A stretch of 64,000 nt of DNA from a virus (lineage: Duplodnaviria > Caudoviricetes). The notes under the pieces were generated by a model. The model saw only the letters and a program-made list of their open reading frames with translations, did not search any database and was not told where the DNA came from. Each line of letters opens with the position of its first letter. Positions within the stretch are counted from its first letter, which is position 1. The stretch is from positions 192,001 to 256,000 of IMG/VR virus record IMGVR_UViG_3300011559_000001, one strand, 5' to 3'. Of this stretch, positions 18,350 through 36,525 are shown one piece after another. The translations under genes were made by a program, and so were the position numbers.

Positions 18350-18698
18350 GTGATGCTCCAGTGGGGCTTGTATGTTTGACTATACAATGGAGCGGCAGGT
18401 GAGGTTCGAACATAGACTCTTGTCAACGAAGTATGAAATTACTGTGAAGATCGTGTTAAGTATTTTTCTACTTCAATGACTCTAAGTGTAGGACCCATTT
18501 TTACTAGTACTACGTAAGTAGTACTTACTATAGTAACTATATGGGAGGGTCTGTTTGAGACCGGAGGTCGAAAATGGACAAAAAATCACCACATCGCTCA
18601 GCCTTGGGGGCTGAGCTGTTTATGCCCGTCTTCACGCTAGGGGATTTTTGGGATCCCCTAGCTCTACCCTATGAAAGATTACTCACTGGAGTGTAACT
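18350..18698. promoter_or_regulatory. AT-rich divergent intergenic region with palindromes
   Basis: AGTACTAC-GTAA-GTAGTACT (18506-18525), TTACTATAGTAA (18525-18536), hairpins at 18596-18616 and 18636-18662. Confidence 0.5.
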
Positions 18699-30186: not shown

Positions 30187-30594
30187 ATGTTGGATCAATC
30201 CAAGATCAAGCTGGAGAGCACGGTTTCCTTTGACCTGTATCCGGCTCATCAACTGCAAGCCAAGGTTACCAACGCCAAGGTGTTGGGTATCTTCACTGCA
30301 GCCACCGCGCAGTCGCTGGGCTTTGATGCCCCGGCCCTGCACGTCAACGTGTACCCCACCCTGCCCCCGGGCACGCCGAACAAGTTCGACCAGTACCTGT
30401 ACATCTACGTCAAGCTGGCCAACGGCGAGAAGACCTTCTATGGTCTGCCGTGGATCAAGGAGACCACCTTCAAGGAAGAGGTGATCCGCACCATCGCCAT
30501 CTACATCGATGCGATCTCCCCGGACCAGCAGAACCTGGCGGTCCAAGCCCTGTCGGCTATCGGCCTGACGGTGGCAAAAGTCGAGGTCCTGTAA
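30187..30594 (+). CDS. Conserved phiKZ-like small protein upstream of the DNA polymerase
   Basis: 135 aa; VSFDLYP, HVNVYPTLP and GLPWI segments; synteny. Confidence 0.7.
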   Translation: MLDQSKIKLESTVSFDLYPAHQLQAKVTNAKVLGIFTAATAQSLGFDAPALHVNVYPTLPPGTPNKFDQYLYIYVKLANGEKTFYGLPWIKETTFKEEVIRTIAIYIDAISPDQQNLAVQALSAIGLTVAKVEVL

Positions 30595-30600
30595 GGACCC

Positions 30601-30634
30601 CGTATTTTGTTACGGGTTTGCACCTATGTTGTAG
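30601..30634 (+). promoter_or_regulatory. Bipartite promoter-like motif CGTAwTTTGTTAC-N9-CCTATGTTGTAG, copy 1
   Basis: Near-identical copy with the same spacing at 34331-34364. Confidence 0.55.
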
Positions 30635-30858
30635 ACGACACAGGCGGGTGGCGTCTAAACTCCCCGGACTCTCGCCAATCATTGTTATGGTTCTCGATTT
30701 CCCAGACAATGAAAGGCATCACCTTGAGAGGATGGGATAGCGGTGCCAATTGGTGCCGCCACGACCAAATGCGCTCGCACGTTTTGGACTGACGTGCTTG
30801 ATGCGCTGGGAAGTGGGAGAGGGGGCCTCGGAAGAGGCCCCCTTCTTTTTATGCCGTC
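30628..30858 (+). ncRNA. Candidate structured ncRNA of about 220 nt
   Basis: Lies between the promoter-like motif and a terminator; multi-stem fold; no RBS-supported ORF. Confidence 0.45.
30817..30858 (+). terminator. Hairpin terminator
   Basis: AGGGGGCCTC-GGAA-GAGGCCCCCT-TCTTTTTATGCCGTC. Confidence 0.85.
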
Positions 30859-30917
30859 GATCTATTTTTCCTTTTTTACGTAGCCGCCGGAAGGTATGAA
30901 CGGTAGAAGGAAATCAG

Positions 30918-33119
30918 ATGGAACATTTCGTAAATGCCCCCGAATCCTACAAACGTAATGTGGACCTGCGCGCTACCTACGTGCAGGATGCGGCCACCTA
31001 CGTTTCAAAGATGCGAGGGATCTCGCTGGAAGAAGCTCGAGACTTCGTCCTGCGTACCATTGCACCCACCGGCGCCAAGCCGATGAAAGACCCCATGACG
31101 ATGGTTCTGGTCCGTCAGCCCAATGGCGACCGTGAACAAAAGCAGATGCACATGTCCGAGTTCCTCGGATCGGTGTACGAAAACCGCCAGATGCTTTCCC
31201 CCTCGATGACGGCCTATGTCCACCCGGACGTCGAGAAATCGCTGCTGGCCGTTTACATTGACAAGAACCTGGATCGTCGTAAAGCCGCCAAGGCTGAGAT
31301 GTTTGCAGCCAAGATGGCAGGCGATGACGCTGCGGCCAACATCGGCAACTCCAAGCAGACCACGTTCAAGATCAAGAACAACTCCCTGTCCGGTGCACAC
31401 AGCTCGCCGTACACGATCCTGTGGAACAAGTCCAGCCACTCCACGCTGACCTCGACTTGCCGTGTGGCCACCTCGTATGGCAACACCAACAACGAGAAGT
31501 TCCTCTACGGCAACCGGCACTACTGGTGCCCGGACATTGCCCGCAACAACATCATCTCCATCGTCAACCACACCGACCTGCCGCGCATGGAGCAGGTGAT
31601 GACCACCTTTGGTCTGGTGGCACCGACGGTAGAAGAGTGCATGGGCATCATGCACCGGTGCTGTGACAACTACTGGCGCGATGATGCTGAGATGGACAAC
31701 CTGCGTCAGCTGCTGAGTACGCTCAGCGACGTGGAACGTTCGGCCTTTGCCTACACCTCTGATCTGTATCACTTGGCTCAGTGTAACGATGCCTTCGTGC
31801 GCGAGTTCCTCAAGCGCCTGTCTCACCATCCGGCAGAACCGCAGTCGGTGGAGGAAGCCAAGGGTTGGATCAAACGGATGGACGGCAACTTGGAAGCGTT
31901 CGTGTTTATGCTCTGCTCCAAGGAACTGGCCGGTGGTACCCTGAAGGATGCTATGGGCGATAAGTCCAACATCCCGTTGCAGGAAGCCCGTCCGGAAGAC
32001 TACGGTCGCATTGGTGCGGCTGCCAAGAGCGTGATCGACACCCTGGATTACTACCGTGATTTCATCCGGTGCTTCTGGGTCAGTGACAACCTGCCGGCAT
32101 CGATCTTCCATGCCCCGGGTATCCTGCGTCGTTCGGCGGTGACCTCCGATACCGACTCGACCATCTTTACCGTTCAGCATTGGACGATCTGGTACCGCGG
32201 TCAGTTGGACTTCACCAAGGAGTCTGAGGACATCGCATCGACCACGGTGTATCTGGCCGGTCAGCTGATTCGCCACATTCTGGCCACCACCTCCGGTGCC
32301 ATGGGTGTTGCCACTCAGTACGTCAACAAGCTTTCGATGAAGAACGAATACTACTTCCCGGTATTCAGCCTGACCTCGCGAGCCAAGCACTACTATGCCT
32401 ACCGCGCCGCGCAGGAAGGTAACGTGCTCAAAGAGCTGGAGACGGAGATCAAGGGCGTGGCCCTGCGTAACTCCAACGTCCCGCCTGCAATCACCAAGAA
32501 AGCCCATGCGTTGATTCGCTATGTCATGGACAGCGTGATGGCCGGTCGCAAGCTCAACTCCAGTCAGGTGCTGCGTTATGTGGCCAAGGTGGAAGATGAC
32601 ATCCATCAAGGCGTGCTCAATGGCGATTACTCGCTGCTGGGTAAGATGCAGATCAAGTCGCCCGATGCCTACAAGAACCCTGAGAGCTCCCCATACGTCC
32701 ACTACGGGCTGTGGCAAGCGGTCTTTGCCGATACGTACGGTCCGGCGCCGAGCCCGCCCTACGTCGCTGTCAAGGTCCCTGTGGATCTGGAACGAAAGAC
32801 CGACGTGGCGGATTGGTTGAAGAATATGCCCGACCAAGCGATCGCTGATCGTCTGCGTACGTGGATGGAAGCCAACGGTAAGACCACGATGGCTGTGATG
32901 ATGCTCCCCGAGCAGGTGTTGGCATTGACGGGTATCCCCAAGGAAATCGTCTCTACCGTGAACATTCGACCGCTGGTGATCCAGACGGTGGAATCGTTCT
33001 ACCTGATCTTGGAATCGCTGGGCATCTTCATGAAGAACAAGGACCAGACCCGTCTGGTTTCTGATGAGAAGTGGTTGCTCGATCCTGAGTGGCCTTTGCC
33101 TGAACTTGAAATCGGCTAA
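30918..33119 (+). CDS. Split family-B DNA polymerase, catalytic part (phiKZ gp50-like)
   Basis: Motif B QTTFKIKNNSLSG, motif C TSDTDST, AKHYY and EIKGV; synteny with chmA. Confidence 0.85.
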   Translation: MEHFVNAPESYKRNVDLRATYVQDAATYVSKMRGISLEEARDFVLRTIAPTGAKPMKDPMTMVLVRQPNGDREQKQMHMSEFLGSVYENRQMLSPSMTAYVHPDVEKSLLAVYIDKNLDRRKAAKAEMFAAKMAGDDAAANIGNSKQTTFKIKNNSLSGAHSSPYTILWNKSSHSTLTSTCRVATSYGNTNNEKFLYGNRHYWCPDIARNNIISIVNHTDLPRMEQVMTTFGLVAPTVEECMGIMHRCCDNYWRDDAEMDNLRQLLSTLSDVERSAFAYTSDLYHLAQCNDAFVREFLKRLSHHPAEPQSVEEAKGWIKRMDGNLEAFVFMLCSKELAGGTLKDAMGDKSNIPLQEARPEDYGRIGAAAKSVIDTLDYYRDFIRCFWVSDNLPASIFHAPGILRRSAVTSDTDSTIFTVQHWTIWYRGQLDFTKESEDIASTTVYLAGQLIRHILATTSGAMGVATQYVNKLSMKNEYYFPVFSLTSRAKHYYAYRAAQEGNVLKELETEIKGVALRNSNVPPAITKKAHALIRYVMDSVMAGRKLNSSQVLRYVAKVEDDIHQGVLNGDYSLLGKMQIKSPDAYKNPESSPYVHYGLWQAVFADTYGPAPSPPYVAVKVPVDLERKTDVADWLKNMPDQAIADRLRTWMEANGKTTMAVMMLPEQVLALTGIPKEIVSTVNIRPLVIQTVESFYLILESLGIFMKNKDQTRLVSDEKWLLDPEWPLPELEIG

Positions 33120-33175: not shown

Positions 33176-34261
33176 TCAAAGGTACGGCACGATGCCGTAG
33201 TCGATGAAAATGGAGACGTCCTCGTACAGGTCGGCGGGCATGGCCGAGCGCATCGTGGTGTTTCCATCCATGTACTGCAACCAGCGCTTGATGTAATTCA
33301 AGTACTTCTGGTTCAGGTGGTTGTTGGTGTTCCGGTTGAACTGCACCAGGAAAGTGATCAGCGCCAGACGGGCCATCATGACACCCCATTGCAGCTGGGT
33401 GTTGTAGGGCATCTCCGGCAGCTTAAGCACGTGGTGTAAATTCTCAGCGCAGACCGTAGGTATGTGAGACACCAACGTGTCAAAGTCCCAGCGCTTGGGG
33501 CCGGCTTGTTCGAGGAACTTGTCCAACACCTTATCCATCTCCGTCGACCAGTCGGTGAGGTGATAGGGATGGCGGAAGGACTCGGCAACCGGCTGTGTAC
33601 CGAAGAACCGGTTCATCAAGCGATTCAGGACGGCGATGTCGATTTGGCTGTCAAGCATGTTGGGCAGCGGGTAGGCCTGCAGGAACTGAGCAACGCCCCG
33701 CTCGGATTCATCCTGCTGGTTGTACGCCAGGCGCCACGCCCGGTACTGACTGGCCAACATGGGAACGTTGATCGTGATCACTGCCACACCCGGCTCAGAC
33801 GACGCGAACTGAGCATCGGCCACCGGCAGTCGCAAGGTACTCATCGGATGCCACAGATAGCGGATGGGCGCAAGCTCCTCCCAATTCGCTAGACCGGCTT
33901 CGACGTCCCACGTATCAGCCGTGGCAATGATGATTTCCGTGGACCCTTTACCCAGAAAGGGCCCCGGACGCCAGACTTGCCCCTTGGACAGGGCTGAGGT
34001 CAGACGTAGGCTCTGCGTAAACAACAGAGCAATGTCGGCCACCTTGTCATTGTAGATGATGGGATCCATCTTCTGCGACACAGGCACGCTGTAGAGCAAG
34101 CGCGTCAGCAAGTGACCGCCCGGAAGGTAGCGGGGGTTCATCCTCCGGTACCGCTTGATCTTTTCAATGGACAACTGCAGCCCATCACGGATCCTGCGGA
34201 AGTCGGGGAAGATCAGTCCCCCGCCGAAATGGTTGGGAGACTCGTTCAACAACTGATACAT
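33176..34261 (-). CDS. Conserved phiKZ-like protein (gp52-like position)
   Basis: 361 aa, GGAGGAG RBS, opposite strand between the polymerase and chmA. Confidence 0.65.
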   Translation of the reverse strand: MYQLLNESPNHFGGGLIFPDFRRIRDGLQLSIEKIKRYRRMNPRYLPGGHLLTRLLYSVPVSQKMDPIIYNDKVADIALLFTQSLRLTSALSKGQVWRPGPFLGKGSTEIIIATADTWDVEAGLANWEELAPIRYLWHPMSTLRLPVADAQFASSEPGVAVITINVPMLASQYRAWRLAYNQQDESERGVAQFLQAYPLPNMLDSQIDIAVLNRLMNRFFGTQPVAESFRHPYHLTDWSTEMDKVLDKFLEQAGPKRWDFDTLVSHIPTVCAENLHHVLKLPEMPYNTQLQWGVMMARLALITFLVQFNRNTNNHLNQKYLNYIKRWLQYMDGNTTMRSAMPADLYEDVSIFIDYGIVPYL

Positions 34262-34330
34262 GTCTCCTCCAACGGGGACGGTAAAGGGAGTTGGGAAAAG
34301 GCTATATAATTCCGGTCCGGAACCTGCTTA

Positions 34331-34364
34331 CGTAATTTGTTACTCCAGAAGCCCTATGTTGTAG
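34331..34364 (+). promoter_or_regulatory. Bipartite promoter-like motif, copy 2, upstream of chmA
   Basis: CGTAATTTGTTAC-N9-CCTATGTTGTAG. Confidence 0.55.
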
Positions 34365-34578
34365 GGAATACGCTCCCTAGACATCCAACCGCAACTGGGT
34401 GTCGAGAAAGCCGAGGTATATTGTCTCCTACCTCTAGTTTGGTGTGGATTCGAAAGTTTTTCACAACTAGACTATACCCTTGACAACAGTAACGAGCAAT
34501 CGGAACTGGTGTTCGCGCGAACTACCCATACCGCAACAATCCGCTAGCAATCGAAGATCCATAGAAGAGGAATACACC

Positions 34579-36525
34579 ATGTCCGTTACCCGCGGCAGCG
34601 ACAACAACAGCAACAACAAGAACACCTCGCAGAACGAAGGCGGCAGCCACACCTTCGGCACCTCGTTCAACCAGACCGGTGGTGCGCAGACCGCCGGCAA
34701 CGCGCAGGCCTCCGGCGCCAACGGTCGCGTGACCTCCAGCCGTGGTGGCCTGGGCAAGCTGCTGGGCATGCGTTCGGGCGTGGGCCGTCGTCGTCCGGCG
34801 GCTGAACTGCAGAAGATGCAGGAAGCCTTCGTCGAAGAGTTCAAGGCCTACGAAGGCAGCCCGGTCCTGCCGGAAGCGCAGCCGCACCGCCTGATCATGG
34901 CCGACCGCGGCCGTCTGAACAAGAAGGTCGACGCCCTGATCGTCGCCCTGCCGGTCCAGCACGAAGGCGGCATCCACATGGTCATCCACACCCTGCTGGT
35001 CGAAGACGCCAACGACGTCTACGAAGCCAACCAGTGGCAGGTGGGCGGCAAGCAGTACCGCATCAGCACCGTGGTCGGTGACGTCTACGACGCCGCCTTC
35101 GCTTCGACCATCGTCGAAGTGGTGCGCGAGCAGACCGGCGTGAACTTCACCTCGTACGACGCCGGTCACCAGACCCTGCCGGCCGAGATGAACATCCTGG
35201 ACAAGGAAGCCATCCACAAGATCGCCTTCTTCGTCGCCGAAGCCCTGCTGCGTACGGCGCTGTCGCAGGTCATCAAGACCACCGCCGACGTCATCTCCCT
35301 GTCCGACCTGGGCGAGAACATCCAGACCACCGCGGCCATCGACTTCCGCAACGTCCAGAGCCAGACCGCCGCCGGCCTGCCCCTGCTGGGCGAGTTCGAC
35401 GTCAAGCTGCGCTACAGCGAAGGCACCACCTCCGGCAACACCGGCGGCGCCAAGGCCTTCGACCTGGGCAACCAGATCCCGCTGGGCGGCGCTGAAGGCT
35501 TCATCGACCTGTCGTACTCCGAGCCGCCGGCAGCTGGTTTCGGCCAGCAGCCGATCACCCAGCAGTACTACGCCAAGGCCGTGCTGACCCGCCTGGACAC
35601 CGACCAGGACGTCATCACCCCGGAACTGCAGATGCTGGCGCTGCTCGGCGCGACCCTGGTCGGCCGCAACATGAACTGGGCCCGCACCTGGTCGCCGTCC
35701 TTCCGTGGCCTGAACGCCGACCTGAACGACATCGGCGCGATCGGCTACGAGATCCCGGCTCCGGACGGCAACCCGATGGGCCGCATCGACACCACCTCGG
35801 CGCAGTTCGACGACGCCGCGCTGGCACGCCTGGTGATGACCTTCGTCCACGCACAGCCGCTGGTGGCCATCGACGTGGAAGAAGCTGGTGAGCTGTCCTG
35901 GCTGAACCGTACGCTGCTGGACGCAGCGGCCGGCAACGCCGATGCCGAGCAGGCCATCGTGACCGCGATGAACAACCTGACCGCGGGCAACTTCAGCCAG
36001 ATCTGGAACGGTGGCGAGATCGTCATCGACGACCAGAACCGCATCCACCTGGGCTACTACCAGGCCGATGACGGCGTCAACAGCCGCGTGGACCTGCGCG
36101 ACCTGCGTTACCTGTCGGTGCTGAACCGCTACGCGGACGTCGACCCGTCGATGATCGTGAAGTGGCAGGCCACCTTCGACGACGTCGGCGTGGATGCTGA
36201 CGTGCGCCTGGCCGAACGTGAAGACCTGATCCGCAAGATCCTGGGCCCGACCGTTCGCATCACCGGCTACGCTCGCCGCCTGACCTTCACCCCGGACTTC
36301 CTGGACAAGGCGCTGGAAGCTGCCGGCCAGGCCGGTCTGCGCATCCGTCCGGAGAACACCCTGATCGGCTTCGGCCACACCGCGGTTCGCGGTCGCGCCA
36401 ACATGGCCGACCTGACCTTCGGTGGTGGCGGCGGTCGCGCCGTGTTCAACTCGGGCGCCGGCGCTGCCGGTGGTCGTAACCTGAACCGTCCGTTCACCGG
36501 TCGCGGCAACACCTGGGGCCGCTAA
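34579..36525 (+). CDS. chmA: Chimallin, major nuclear shell protein (phiKZ gp54-like)
   Basis: 648 aa with disordered N- and C-termini, strongest codon bias in the window, AAGAGGA RBS; position between DNA polymerase and nvRNAP beta' is the conserved chmA locus. Confidence 0.85.
   Translation: MSVTRGSDNNSNNKNTSQNEGGSHTFGTSFNQTGGAQTAGNAQASGANGRVTSSRGGLGKLLGMRSGVGRRRPAAELQKMQEAFVEEFKAYEGSPVLPEAQPHRLIMADRGRLNKKVDALIVALPVQHEGGIHMVIHTLLVEDANDVYEANQWQVGGKQYRISTVVGDVYDAAFASTIVEVVREQTGVNFTSYDAGHQTLPAEMNILDKEAIHKIAFFVAEALLRTALSQVIKTTADVISLSDLGENIQTTAAIDFRNVQSQTAAGLPLLGEFDVKLRYSEGTTSGNTGGAKAFDLGNQIPLGGAEGFIDLSYSEPPAAGFGQQPITQQYYAKAVLTRLDTDQDVITPELQMLALLGATLVGRNMNWARTWSPSFRGLNADLNDIGAIGYEIPAPDGNPMGRIDTTSAQFDDAALARLVMTFVHAQPLVAIDVEEAGELSWLNRTLLDAAAGNADAEQAIVTAMNNLTAGNFSQIWNGGEIVIDDQNRIHLGYYQADDGVNSRVDLRDLRYLSVLNRYADVDPSMIVKWQATFDDVGVDADVRLAEREDLIRKILGPTVRITGYARRLTFTPDFLDKALEAAGQAGLRIRPENTLIGFGHTAVRGRANMADLTFGGGGGRAVFNSGAGAAGGRNLNRPFTGRGNTWGR

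Follow-up and report, generated by a model that had tools for sequence, protein, structure and literature searches.

Does the 323-nt gap (30595-30917) in front of a phage DNA polymerase gene encode an RNA of its own, or does it merely serve the gene on one side of it? The gap lies in the stretch of 64,000 nucleotides analysed here (the window), which spans bases 192001-256000 of a 310,882-bp record of 58% GC. The source is a chimallivirus, i.e. a giant nucleus-forming phage of ~311 kb, and its nearest isolates are the Xanthomonas phages RTH11 (polymerase protein 84% identical) and vB_XciM_LucasX (69%; LucasX below). Between the upstream stop codon at 30594 and the polymerase (pol) ATG at 30918, the gap holds a promoter-like motif, a set of four or five hairpins and a phage terminator of canonical form. 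Judged by sequence comparison, it very likely holds a genuine non-coding element that is both structured and conserved, and we put at about 0.6 the probability that it is the gene for a discrete structured ncRNA of ~223 nt, read from the plus strand and acting in trans as a small RNA. The genes on either side are as follows:

30187-30594, plus strand: SH3DP gene, for an SH3-fold protein associated with phage DNA polymerases (Pfam PF20287, E = 1e-30)
30918-33119, plus strand: divergent family-B DNA polymerase gene (Pfam PF20286, E = 3e-249)

The gene that follows a second copy of the promoter-like motif was called as chimallin (chmA) from Pfam PF25677 and PHROG 4795. Since Pfam and PHROG assign pol, SH3DP and chimallin, the gene labels of the preliminary description (DNA polymerase, chmA) hold, and because SH3DP lies upstream and pol downstream, the gap splits the conserved SH3DP-pol pair. 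Each sequence element listed in that description was found at the position given for it, except CCAAA, which occupies 30765-69 instead of starting at 30766. Many RTH11 and LucasX genes in this block are without a recognisable Shine-Dalgarno sequence; TTTTTTGTAGGCTTCCGTC, for example, precedes the SH3DP gene.

Counterparts of the candidate RNA were found in six distinct versions of 158-225 nt, always between SH3DP and pol:

Window 30628-30850, plus strand: version of the source phage
L001:5502-5726: version of RTH11
L002:5529-5690: version of LucasX
L016:16-203, L017:2198-2408 and L037:109-266 (the last on the minus strand): versions of uncultured phages

A covariance model of the 5' domain (R1) recovered one copy per genome and the six known copies only, with no match in the pol-upstream gaps of L021, L022 and phiKZ or in more distant chimalliviruses, and a metagenome scan contributed nothing beyond identical copies (L078 and L089). 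In the second of these contigs, L089 (JACCDR011581828.1), the locus recurs base for base, and 0.61-0.66 of its sampled words were present in runs X1 and X3 (freshwater, one study) and X2 (different organism). Four wastewater runs labelled RNA-Seq, which are probably DNA, yielded few exact contigs and no pattern. Rfam 15 gave no match in the window at the gathering threshold, and at E up to 10 only the generic terminator stem and spurious short matches appeared; a 17-mer of the P1 region (see below) returned mostly chance matches from viral contigs, e.g. L010, and was discarded as a probe. In more distant phages (L018, L019, L020, L028) only the terminator and a TTTTTAC box stand before pol, and unrelated hairpin-rich terminated units occupy that place in L021 (174 nt), L022 (115 nt) and phiKZ (~109 nt). 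The phiKZ unit follows a terminator in the gp049-gp050 gap (L032:22378-22578), between the gene in the SH3DP position and pol; it starts at TATGTTG, comprises two hairpins and a T-rich run, and has no sequence similarity to the RNA of the source phage.

Only six sequences thus enter the comparison, and for the middle of the RNA a reliable alignment is confined to the source phage and RTH11. Identity to RTH11 is 69%, close to that of third codon positions in the flanking genes (61-68%), with the fold kept; the RNA appears to be under selection for its fold, with two sequence-constrained patches. Against shuffled sequences it folds with a z-score of -4.6 with the terminator and -4.05 without. 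A common order is kept in all six RNAs, namely a 5' hairpin (P1), a second hairpin (P2), one to three variable hairpins and the terminator, and in the source phage the parts are arranged as follows:

30628-30850, plus strand: candidate RNA of ~223 nt, its putative ends set by the promoter-like motif and the terminator
30632-30657, plus strand: P1, 5'-proximal hairpin UAGACG.CAC/GUG.CGUCUA with the G-rich loop GGCGGG
30679-30712, plus strand: P2, 7-bp helix (30679-85/30706-12) closing a 20-nt loop, with covariation in six phages
30662-30738, plus strand: irregular outer extension of P2 (CCC/GGG, GCC/GGC), in the source phage and RTH11 only
30740-30759, plus strand: P3, hairpin GCGGUGCC-AAUU-GGUGCCGC, with two compensatory and two half-compensatory pairs against RTH11
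30760-30816, plus strand: P4 domain, with closing CAC/GUG and a helix at 30771-30805; three compensatory pairs against RTH11
30817-30856, plus strand: intrinsic terminator and post-terminator signature TTTATGCCG (30848-30856); stem covaries in all six phages

P2 was examined by taking its invariant loop as an anchor, which places the seven flanking pairs in register in all six phages. Compensatory changes were seen in every one of the seven pairs, 95% of cells were paired as against 33-55% in slid controls, and none of 500 shuffles reached the score. This helix is the TCATTGT/ACAATGA pairing that had been put forward as a possible switch; the pairing is real, is the best supported of those proposed, and forms the core helix. 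The loop that it closes (AUGGUUCUCGAUUNCCCA in the RNA, 18-19 nt) is pyrimidine-rich (UUCUC, UUUCCC), and its bases 30687-30704 (AUGGUUCUCGAUUUCCCA) are the same in the six phages except at one position. Because the stems change in step among relatives while the loop stays nearly unchanged, the RNA is probably real.

P1, proposed earlier as a TAGACG/CGTCTA stem, is nearly invariant across the homologues and can be accepted, with 90% column identity in five phages, 97.8% of cells paired and one compensatory pair; since stem and loop hardly vary, its pairing is compatible with covariation but barely tested by it. Comparison of the source phage with RTH11 alone gave 12 compensatory pairs, including pairs in P3, in the P4 apical stem and in the terminator, and both the GCGGTGCC/GGTGCCGC hairpin (30740-59) and the GCACGT/ACGTGC stem of the preliminary description are upheld by these changes. 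The latter is the P4 apical stem, GCACG/CGUGC with the loop UUUUGGACUGA (30777-97); the architecture of P4 varies in LucasX, L016, L017 and L037. Other proposed pairings did not survive the comparison: the outer nested stems TTCCCAG/CTGGGAA and GCATCA/TGATGC are changed on one side in RTH11 without compensation, as is the CCAAA/TTTGG pairing, whose complementarity is lost. TTCCCAG instead makes up the 3' portion of the unchanging P2 loop and is not a stem. G-U pairs in P2 and P3 fit the plus strand only; together with the covariation and the lack of a conserved open reading frame, they agree with the earlier description of a putative structured, non-coding, plus-strand RNA of ~220 nt.

Three promoter-like features bear on how such an RNA might be expressed:

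30601-30634, plus strand: bipartite promoter-like motif, two copies in the genome; at the same place in RTH11, LucasX, L037 and L017
34331-34364, plus strand: second copy of the motif, one mismatch, ~221 nt upstream of the probable chmA ATG at 34579
30872-30898, plus strand: promoter-like element TTTTTTAC-N15-TATG, 20 nt before the pol ATG

The first of these is a 34-nt arrangement, CGTATTTTGTTAC-N9-CCTATGTTGTAG (also written CGTAWTTTGTTAC-N9-CCTATGTTGTAG), in which a T-rich TTAC box (30604-30613) is followed by an 11-nt spacer, TATG (30625-30628) and then TTGTAG. When up to three mismatches were allowed, two copies were found in the window, as against 0 in 100 shuffles, and these two were the only ones in the whole 310,882-bp genome. 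Its recurrence upstream of chmA with identical spacing and a single mismatch, as previously claimed, was confirmed; RTH11 and LucasX have the same arrangement at each of the two loci, with TATC and TATA in their chmA copies, and the motif is thus shared with the shell gene in all three phages. The form appears to be common in this genome essentially only to the RNA and chmA, apart from two looser copies (genome 168238, minus strand, and window ~18457), and an independent small RNA would probably be co-regulated with chmA through it.

The start of the RNA would be G30628 or a few bases downstream. In phiKZ, late promoters take the form (-3)TATG(+1) (PMC7618050, PMC4666361), middle promoters carry an AAanTTACc box near -24, some of them with TATG at the start (PMC4666361), and of the two chmA start sites the primary is early and the secondary middle (PMC8244752). 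The motif had been called late on the strength of its TATG. That element is indeed present, but a late assignment from TATG alone is too narrow; because a TTAC box, spacer and TATG precede both the RNA and chmA, the promoter seems to follow the grammar of the phiKZ middle class and not that of a plain late promoter. Common to both are a TTAC box after an A/T-rich run and TATG downstream, and the chmA gene of phiKZ likewise has a middle-class start (PMC8244752). The promoter predicted here from sequence differs in that the run before the box is T-rich and not A-rich, in that the box lies ~6 nt nearer TATG, and in an extra conserved TGTAG just after TATG. If G30628 is +1, the TTAC box falls at -18 to -15, and at about -24 if the start is near 30634; with the box ~6 nt closer than that of phiKZ (centred near -24), the start site or the promoter class may differ.

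Both looser copies are followed by hairpins and a terminator. One belongs to a second candidate small RNA, G000:C1:168089-168245 on the minus strand, ~24 kb left of the window, in which TTTTTAC-N12-TATCTTGTAG is followed by a 128-nt hairpin-rich stretch and a hairpin-TTATTATGCCG terminator, without an open reading frame; its body is ~90% identical in RTH11 and its terminator stem covaries. The other stands in an AT-rich gap at window 18450-18630 composed of TATTTTTCTAC-N11-TAAGTGTAG, hairpins and a hairpin-TGTTTATGCC terminator. The motif of this gap is also found in RTH11, at 284811, and a frame of ~40 codons with a GGAGG site starts at window 18574 and runs through the terminator. The chmA leader (window 34358-34578) would measure ~221 nt if transcription starts at the G of TATG, the probable start codon being ATG 34579 and not TTG 34480. 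Its 5' hairpin has a loop of the AUAC type, a further hairpin covaries (GACAUCCA...UGGGUGUC), and RTH11 and LucasX keep a block around GGTGTTCGCGCGAAC almost unchanged. Homology between this leader and the RNA beyond the first 7 nt was rejected (alignment z-scores 1.2 and 0.4). Between the divergent gene 33176-34261 and chmA, TATATAAT (window 34303-34310) occurs once in the whole genome and is conserved in RTH11 as CATATAAT; it may be a distinct promoter, possibly an early one.

At the other end of the gap, the strong terminator of the preliminary description was borne out as an 11-bp GC-rich stem (30819-30844) with the loop GGAA, followed by CTTTTTATG. TTTATGCYG sites lie directly after a strong GC-rich hairpin, with only a short T run, in 20 of 21 instances in the genome; the terminators of this phage thus appear to carry a conserved ATGCCG tail, itself containing the TATG start motif. 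Between the terminator and pol stand the TATG of the signature TTTATGCCG and the element at 30872-30898, and chimalliviruses that lack the RNA still have a TTTTTAC/T box in front of pol. A consensus fold of the homologues contained no conserved antiterminator, the TTCCCAG/CTGGGAA pairing being lost in LucasX as well as in RTH11. The conserved parts of the RNA are P1, the P2 loop and the terminator only, which is not the multi-helix ligand core of a riboswitch. The promoter-like elements after the terminator, its generic operon-end form and the lack of a conserved antiterminator favour a stand-alone small RNA, with pol probably transcribed separately from its own elements, although some transcripts may read through into pol; the attenuator offered earlier as an alternative becomes the weaker reading.

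Taken together, a sequence of events can be proposed for the small RNA. A phage RNA polymerase would use a promoter of the form T-rich TTAC box-N11-TATGTTGTAG, begin at the G of TATG (30628) or immediately downstream, and stop at the canonical phage terminator (30819-30850), with P1 and the terminator hairpin probably stabilising the two RNA ends. The RNA would then act in trans, the P2 loop and possibly P1 serving as the recognition surface for a conserved partner, which could be either a protein or an RNA whose evolution is not tied to that of the phage genes. The DNA polymerase gene would be transcribed separately, from the promoter-like elements downstream of the terminator.

Two alternatives attach the element to one of its neighbours. 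In one, it is a cis-acting leader of the pol mRNA, and transcripts begun at 30628 either stop at the terminator or read through it; the P2 loop would then pair with the pol ribosome-binding site in those transcripts that read through, or else be bound by a protein controlling termination or translation. The element does lie directly upstream of pol in all six phages, and in phiKZ and 201phi2-1 premature termination within 5' UTRs accounts for most of the phage small RNAs reported (PMC10914365; PMC11512511). The reverse complement of the loop, moreover, resembles a Shine-Dalgarno sequence, spacer and AUG, pooled duplexes between loop and pol lie ~2 sd above background, and in LucasX the loop variant UUACC stands opposite GGUAA near the pol start. 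Yet the part of the loop that is used differs between phages, the L016 duplex reaches only -4.7 kcal/mol and single-phage ranks are ordinary, and the arguments from terminator, antiterminator and pol promoter given above all tell against a leader, and we regard this account as unlikely. The other alternative, which we consider improbable, makes the element a long structured 3' UTR of the SH3DP operon, lacking an internal promoter, whose hairpins protect the mRNA or are processed out of it. Only a weak hairpin (30585-30599), not kept in RTH11, parts the SH3DP stop from the element; in chimalliviruses without the RNA the operon terminator occupies this position, immediately ahead of the pol promoter box; and in phiKZ a 3' UTR is the source of one small RNA (PMC8545117). 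For a simple stabiliser, however, an invariant 18-nt loop would be superfluous, the 34-nt motif at the 5' edge has its only duplicate in front of chmA and is kept in relatives, and the other operon-end terminators examined are without a comparable structured stretch before the hairpin.

Two further readings dispense with a functional RNA fold or with a non-coding RNA. As an element acting at the level of DNA, such as a replication origin, packaging site or operator, the stretch would suitably adjoin replication genes, and both strands fold well (z = -4.05 for the plus and -3.76 for the minus strand). On the other strand, though, the G-U pairs of P2 and P3 become A-C mismatches; promoter motif and terminator share one orientation; and no repeats or iterons were seen, which makes this very improbable. 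A replication origin in particular was rejected, as GC skew shows no turn at the locus. The remaining reading is a short peptide, as a micro-protein or a leader: each of the six phages has a frame of 13-31 codons whose ATG stands where the invariant loop begins (30687), and this frame, MVLD[FYS]P, is the only one common to them; a 61-codon TTG frame (30607-30792) is also present. No Shine-Dalgarno sequence precedes the MVLD start, which is weak counter-evidence because many genes of these phages have none. The peptides are unrelated after the six shared codons, however, with tails of differing length (13-31 aa), and these codons exhibit no synonymous variation, every third position being invariant, whereas third positions of pol are 50-68% identical; the one variable base is a second codon position (F/Y/S), and the ATG lies directly beside the P2 stem. 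Mismatches between the source phage and RTH11 fall evenly by codon phase (22/20/24), the 61-codon frame is broken by indels in RTH11, and no conserved open reading frame was found in the six phages. Translation of either frame is therefore scarcely credible.

A partner of the RNA was sought through the P2 loop. The reverse complement in question is GGGAAAUCGAGAACCAU, and duplexes of the loop with pol start regions averaged -10.8 kcal/mol in six phages, against -8.4 (sd 2.8) in 3000 random ATG-anchored windows; this excess comes to ~2 sd when the six phages count as independent. Compared with every window of its own locus, each energy was ordinary, and among annotated neighbouring genes pol ranked about 3rd of 14 and 2nd-3rd of 15 in single phages. 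The pairing, which in LucasX includes the UUACC-GGUAA match, is weakly indicated as a lead. A target in the chmA 5' UTR was rejected: the site at 34387 (-21.6 kcal/mol) was 9th in the genome, its equivalent reached -12.3 in RTH11 and was absent in LucasX, and the LucasX counterpart of the site is part of a local covarying hairpin. A general anti-Shine-Dalgarno role found no support either, since 27 neighbouring start regions (means -7.2 and -8.3 kcal/mol) paired no better than background (-8.4). A duplex-energy scan of the four complete genomes, with orthologous sites compared, gave no conserved phage target that was strong in all four. Exact searches with the loop on both strands returned the phage copies and scattered coding matches (69 metagenome, 45 genome), none from Xanthomonas or its relatives, and in no bacterial genome of the collection was the loop or its complement present in exact form. 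An unchanging loop beside diverging phage genes would point to a protein partner or to a conserved partner in the host. A more ambitious proposal, quite doubtful in our estimation, is that the phage nucleus produces and exports the RNA as a riboregulator acting in trans. Its loop, almost exactly antisense to an idealised ribosome-binding site with start codon (GGGAAAUCGAGAACCAU[G]), would mask the translation start of the pol mRNA or of a conserved host mRNA, and the RNA would form with chmA and at least one other small RNA (G000 168089-168216, minus strand) a small regulon under a dedicated TTAC-N11-TAT(G/C)TTGTAG promoter class.

Known regulatory RNAs offer three points of comparison. The gp43 translational operator of phages T4 and RB69 lies ahead of a family-B polymerase gene and is a hairpin with a conserved loop sequence but not a conserved stem sequence; in T4 it sits right next to the gene 43 Shine-Dalgarno, within one mRNA. 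The present element likewise has a conserved loop on a hairpin upstream of a family-B phage DNA polymerase gene, but P2 ends at 30712, 206 nt before the pol ATG, with a strong terminator and a promoter-like element between, and thus neither adjoins nor overlaps the pol Shine-Dalgarno. RNAIII and RsaE of S. aureus are multi-hairpin regulatory RNAs with C/U-rich anti-Shine-Dalgarno loops, and share with the candidate RNA a pyrimidine-rich loop on a stable hairpin, whose complement here is similar to a ribosome-binding site, spacer and AUG; there is one such loop and not several, however, no target is kept across four genomes, and the 27 neighbouring start regions pair with it no better than random ATG-anchored windows.

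The closest likeness is to the small RNAs of phiKZ and 201phi2-1, and the RNA is probably of a kind already seen in phiKZ-like phages. Those RNAs were mapped by ONT-cappable-seq and Grad-seq (PMC10914365, PMC11512511, PMC8545117) and include 5' UTR-derived or intergenic units of <250 nt that run from a phage start site to an early terminator, e.g. upstream of gp182/gp277; one catalogued small RNA is conserved across genera (PMC10914365, PMC8545117, PMC11512511). The candidate RNA comes from the same virus family and follows the same plan of a promoter, a few hairpins, an intrinsic terminator and then a gene, in the same size range (223 nt from the motif at 30601-30634 to the terminator at 30819-30850, upstream of a coding gene); it has no open reading frame of at least 10 codons with a Shine-Dalgarno before it, and it too is kept among related phages. 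It differs in having no sequence similarity to them, in its invariant 18-nt loop and in its rare promoter form shared with chmA, and its expression is a prediction. No small RNA upstream of a DNA polymerase gene is reported in the phiKZ and 201phi2-1 catalogues, and the LucasX paper describes no RNA element. Transcription in nucleus-forming jumbo phages takes place apart from translation, and their catalogued small RNAs (phiKZ, 201phi2-1) are without known function; this RNA would be a well-defined handle, with a single invariant loop, a covarying stem and a promoter form shared with the shell gene. Two of its carriers, RTH11 and LucasX, are culturable Xanthomonas phages in which deletion or mutation is possible. 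Together with the phiKZ hairpin unit in the same gap, it suggests that the position between SH3DP and pol is a recurrent home of regulatory RNA in this family.
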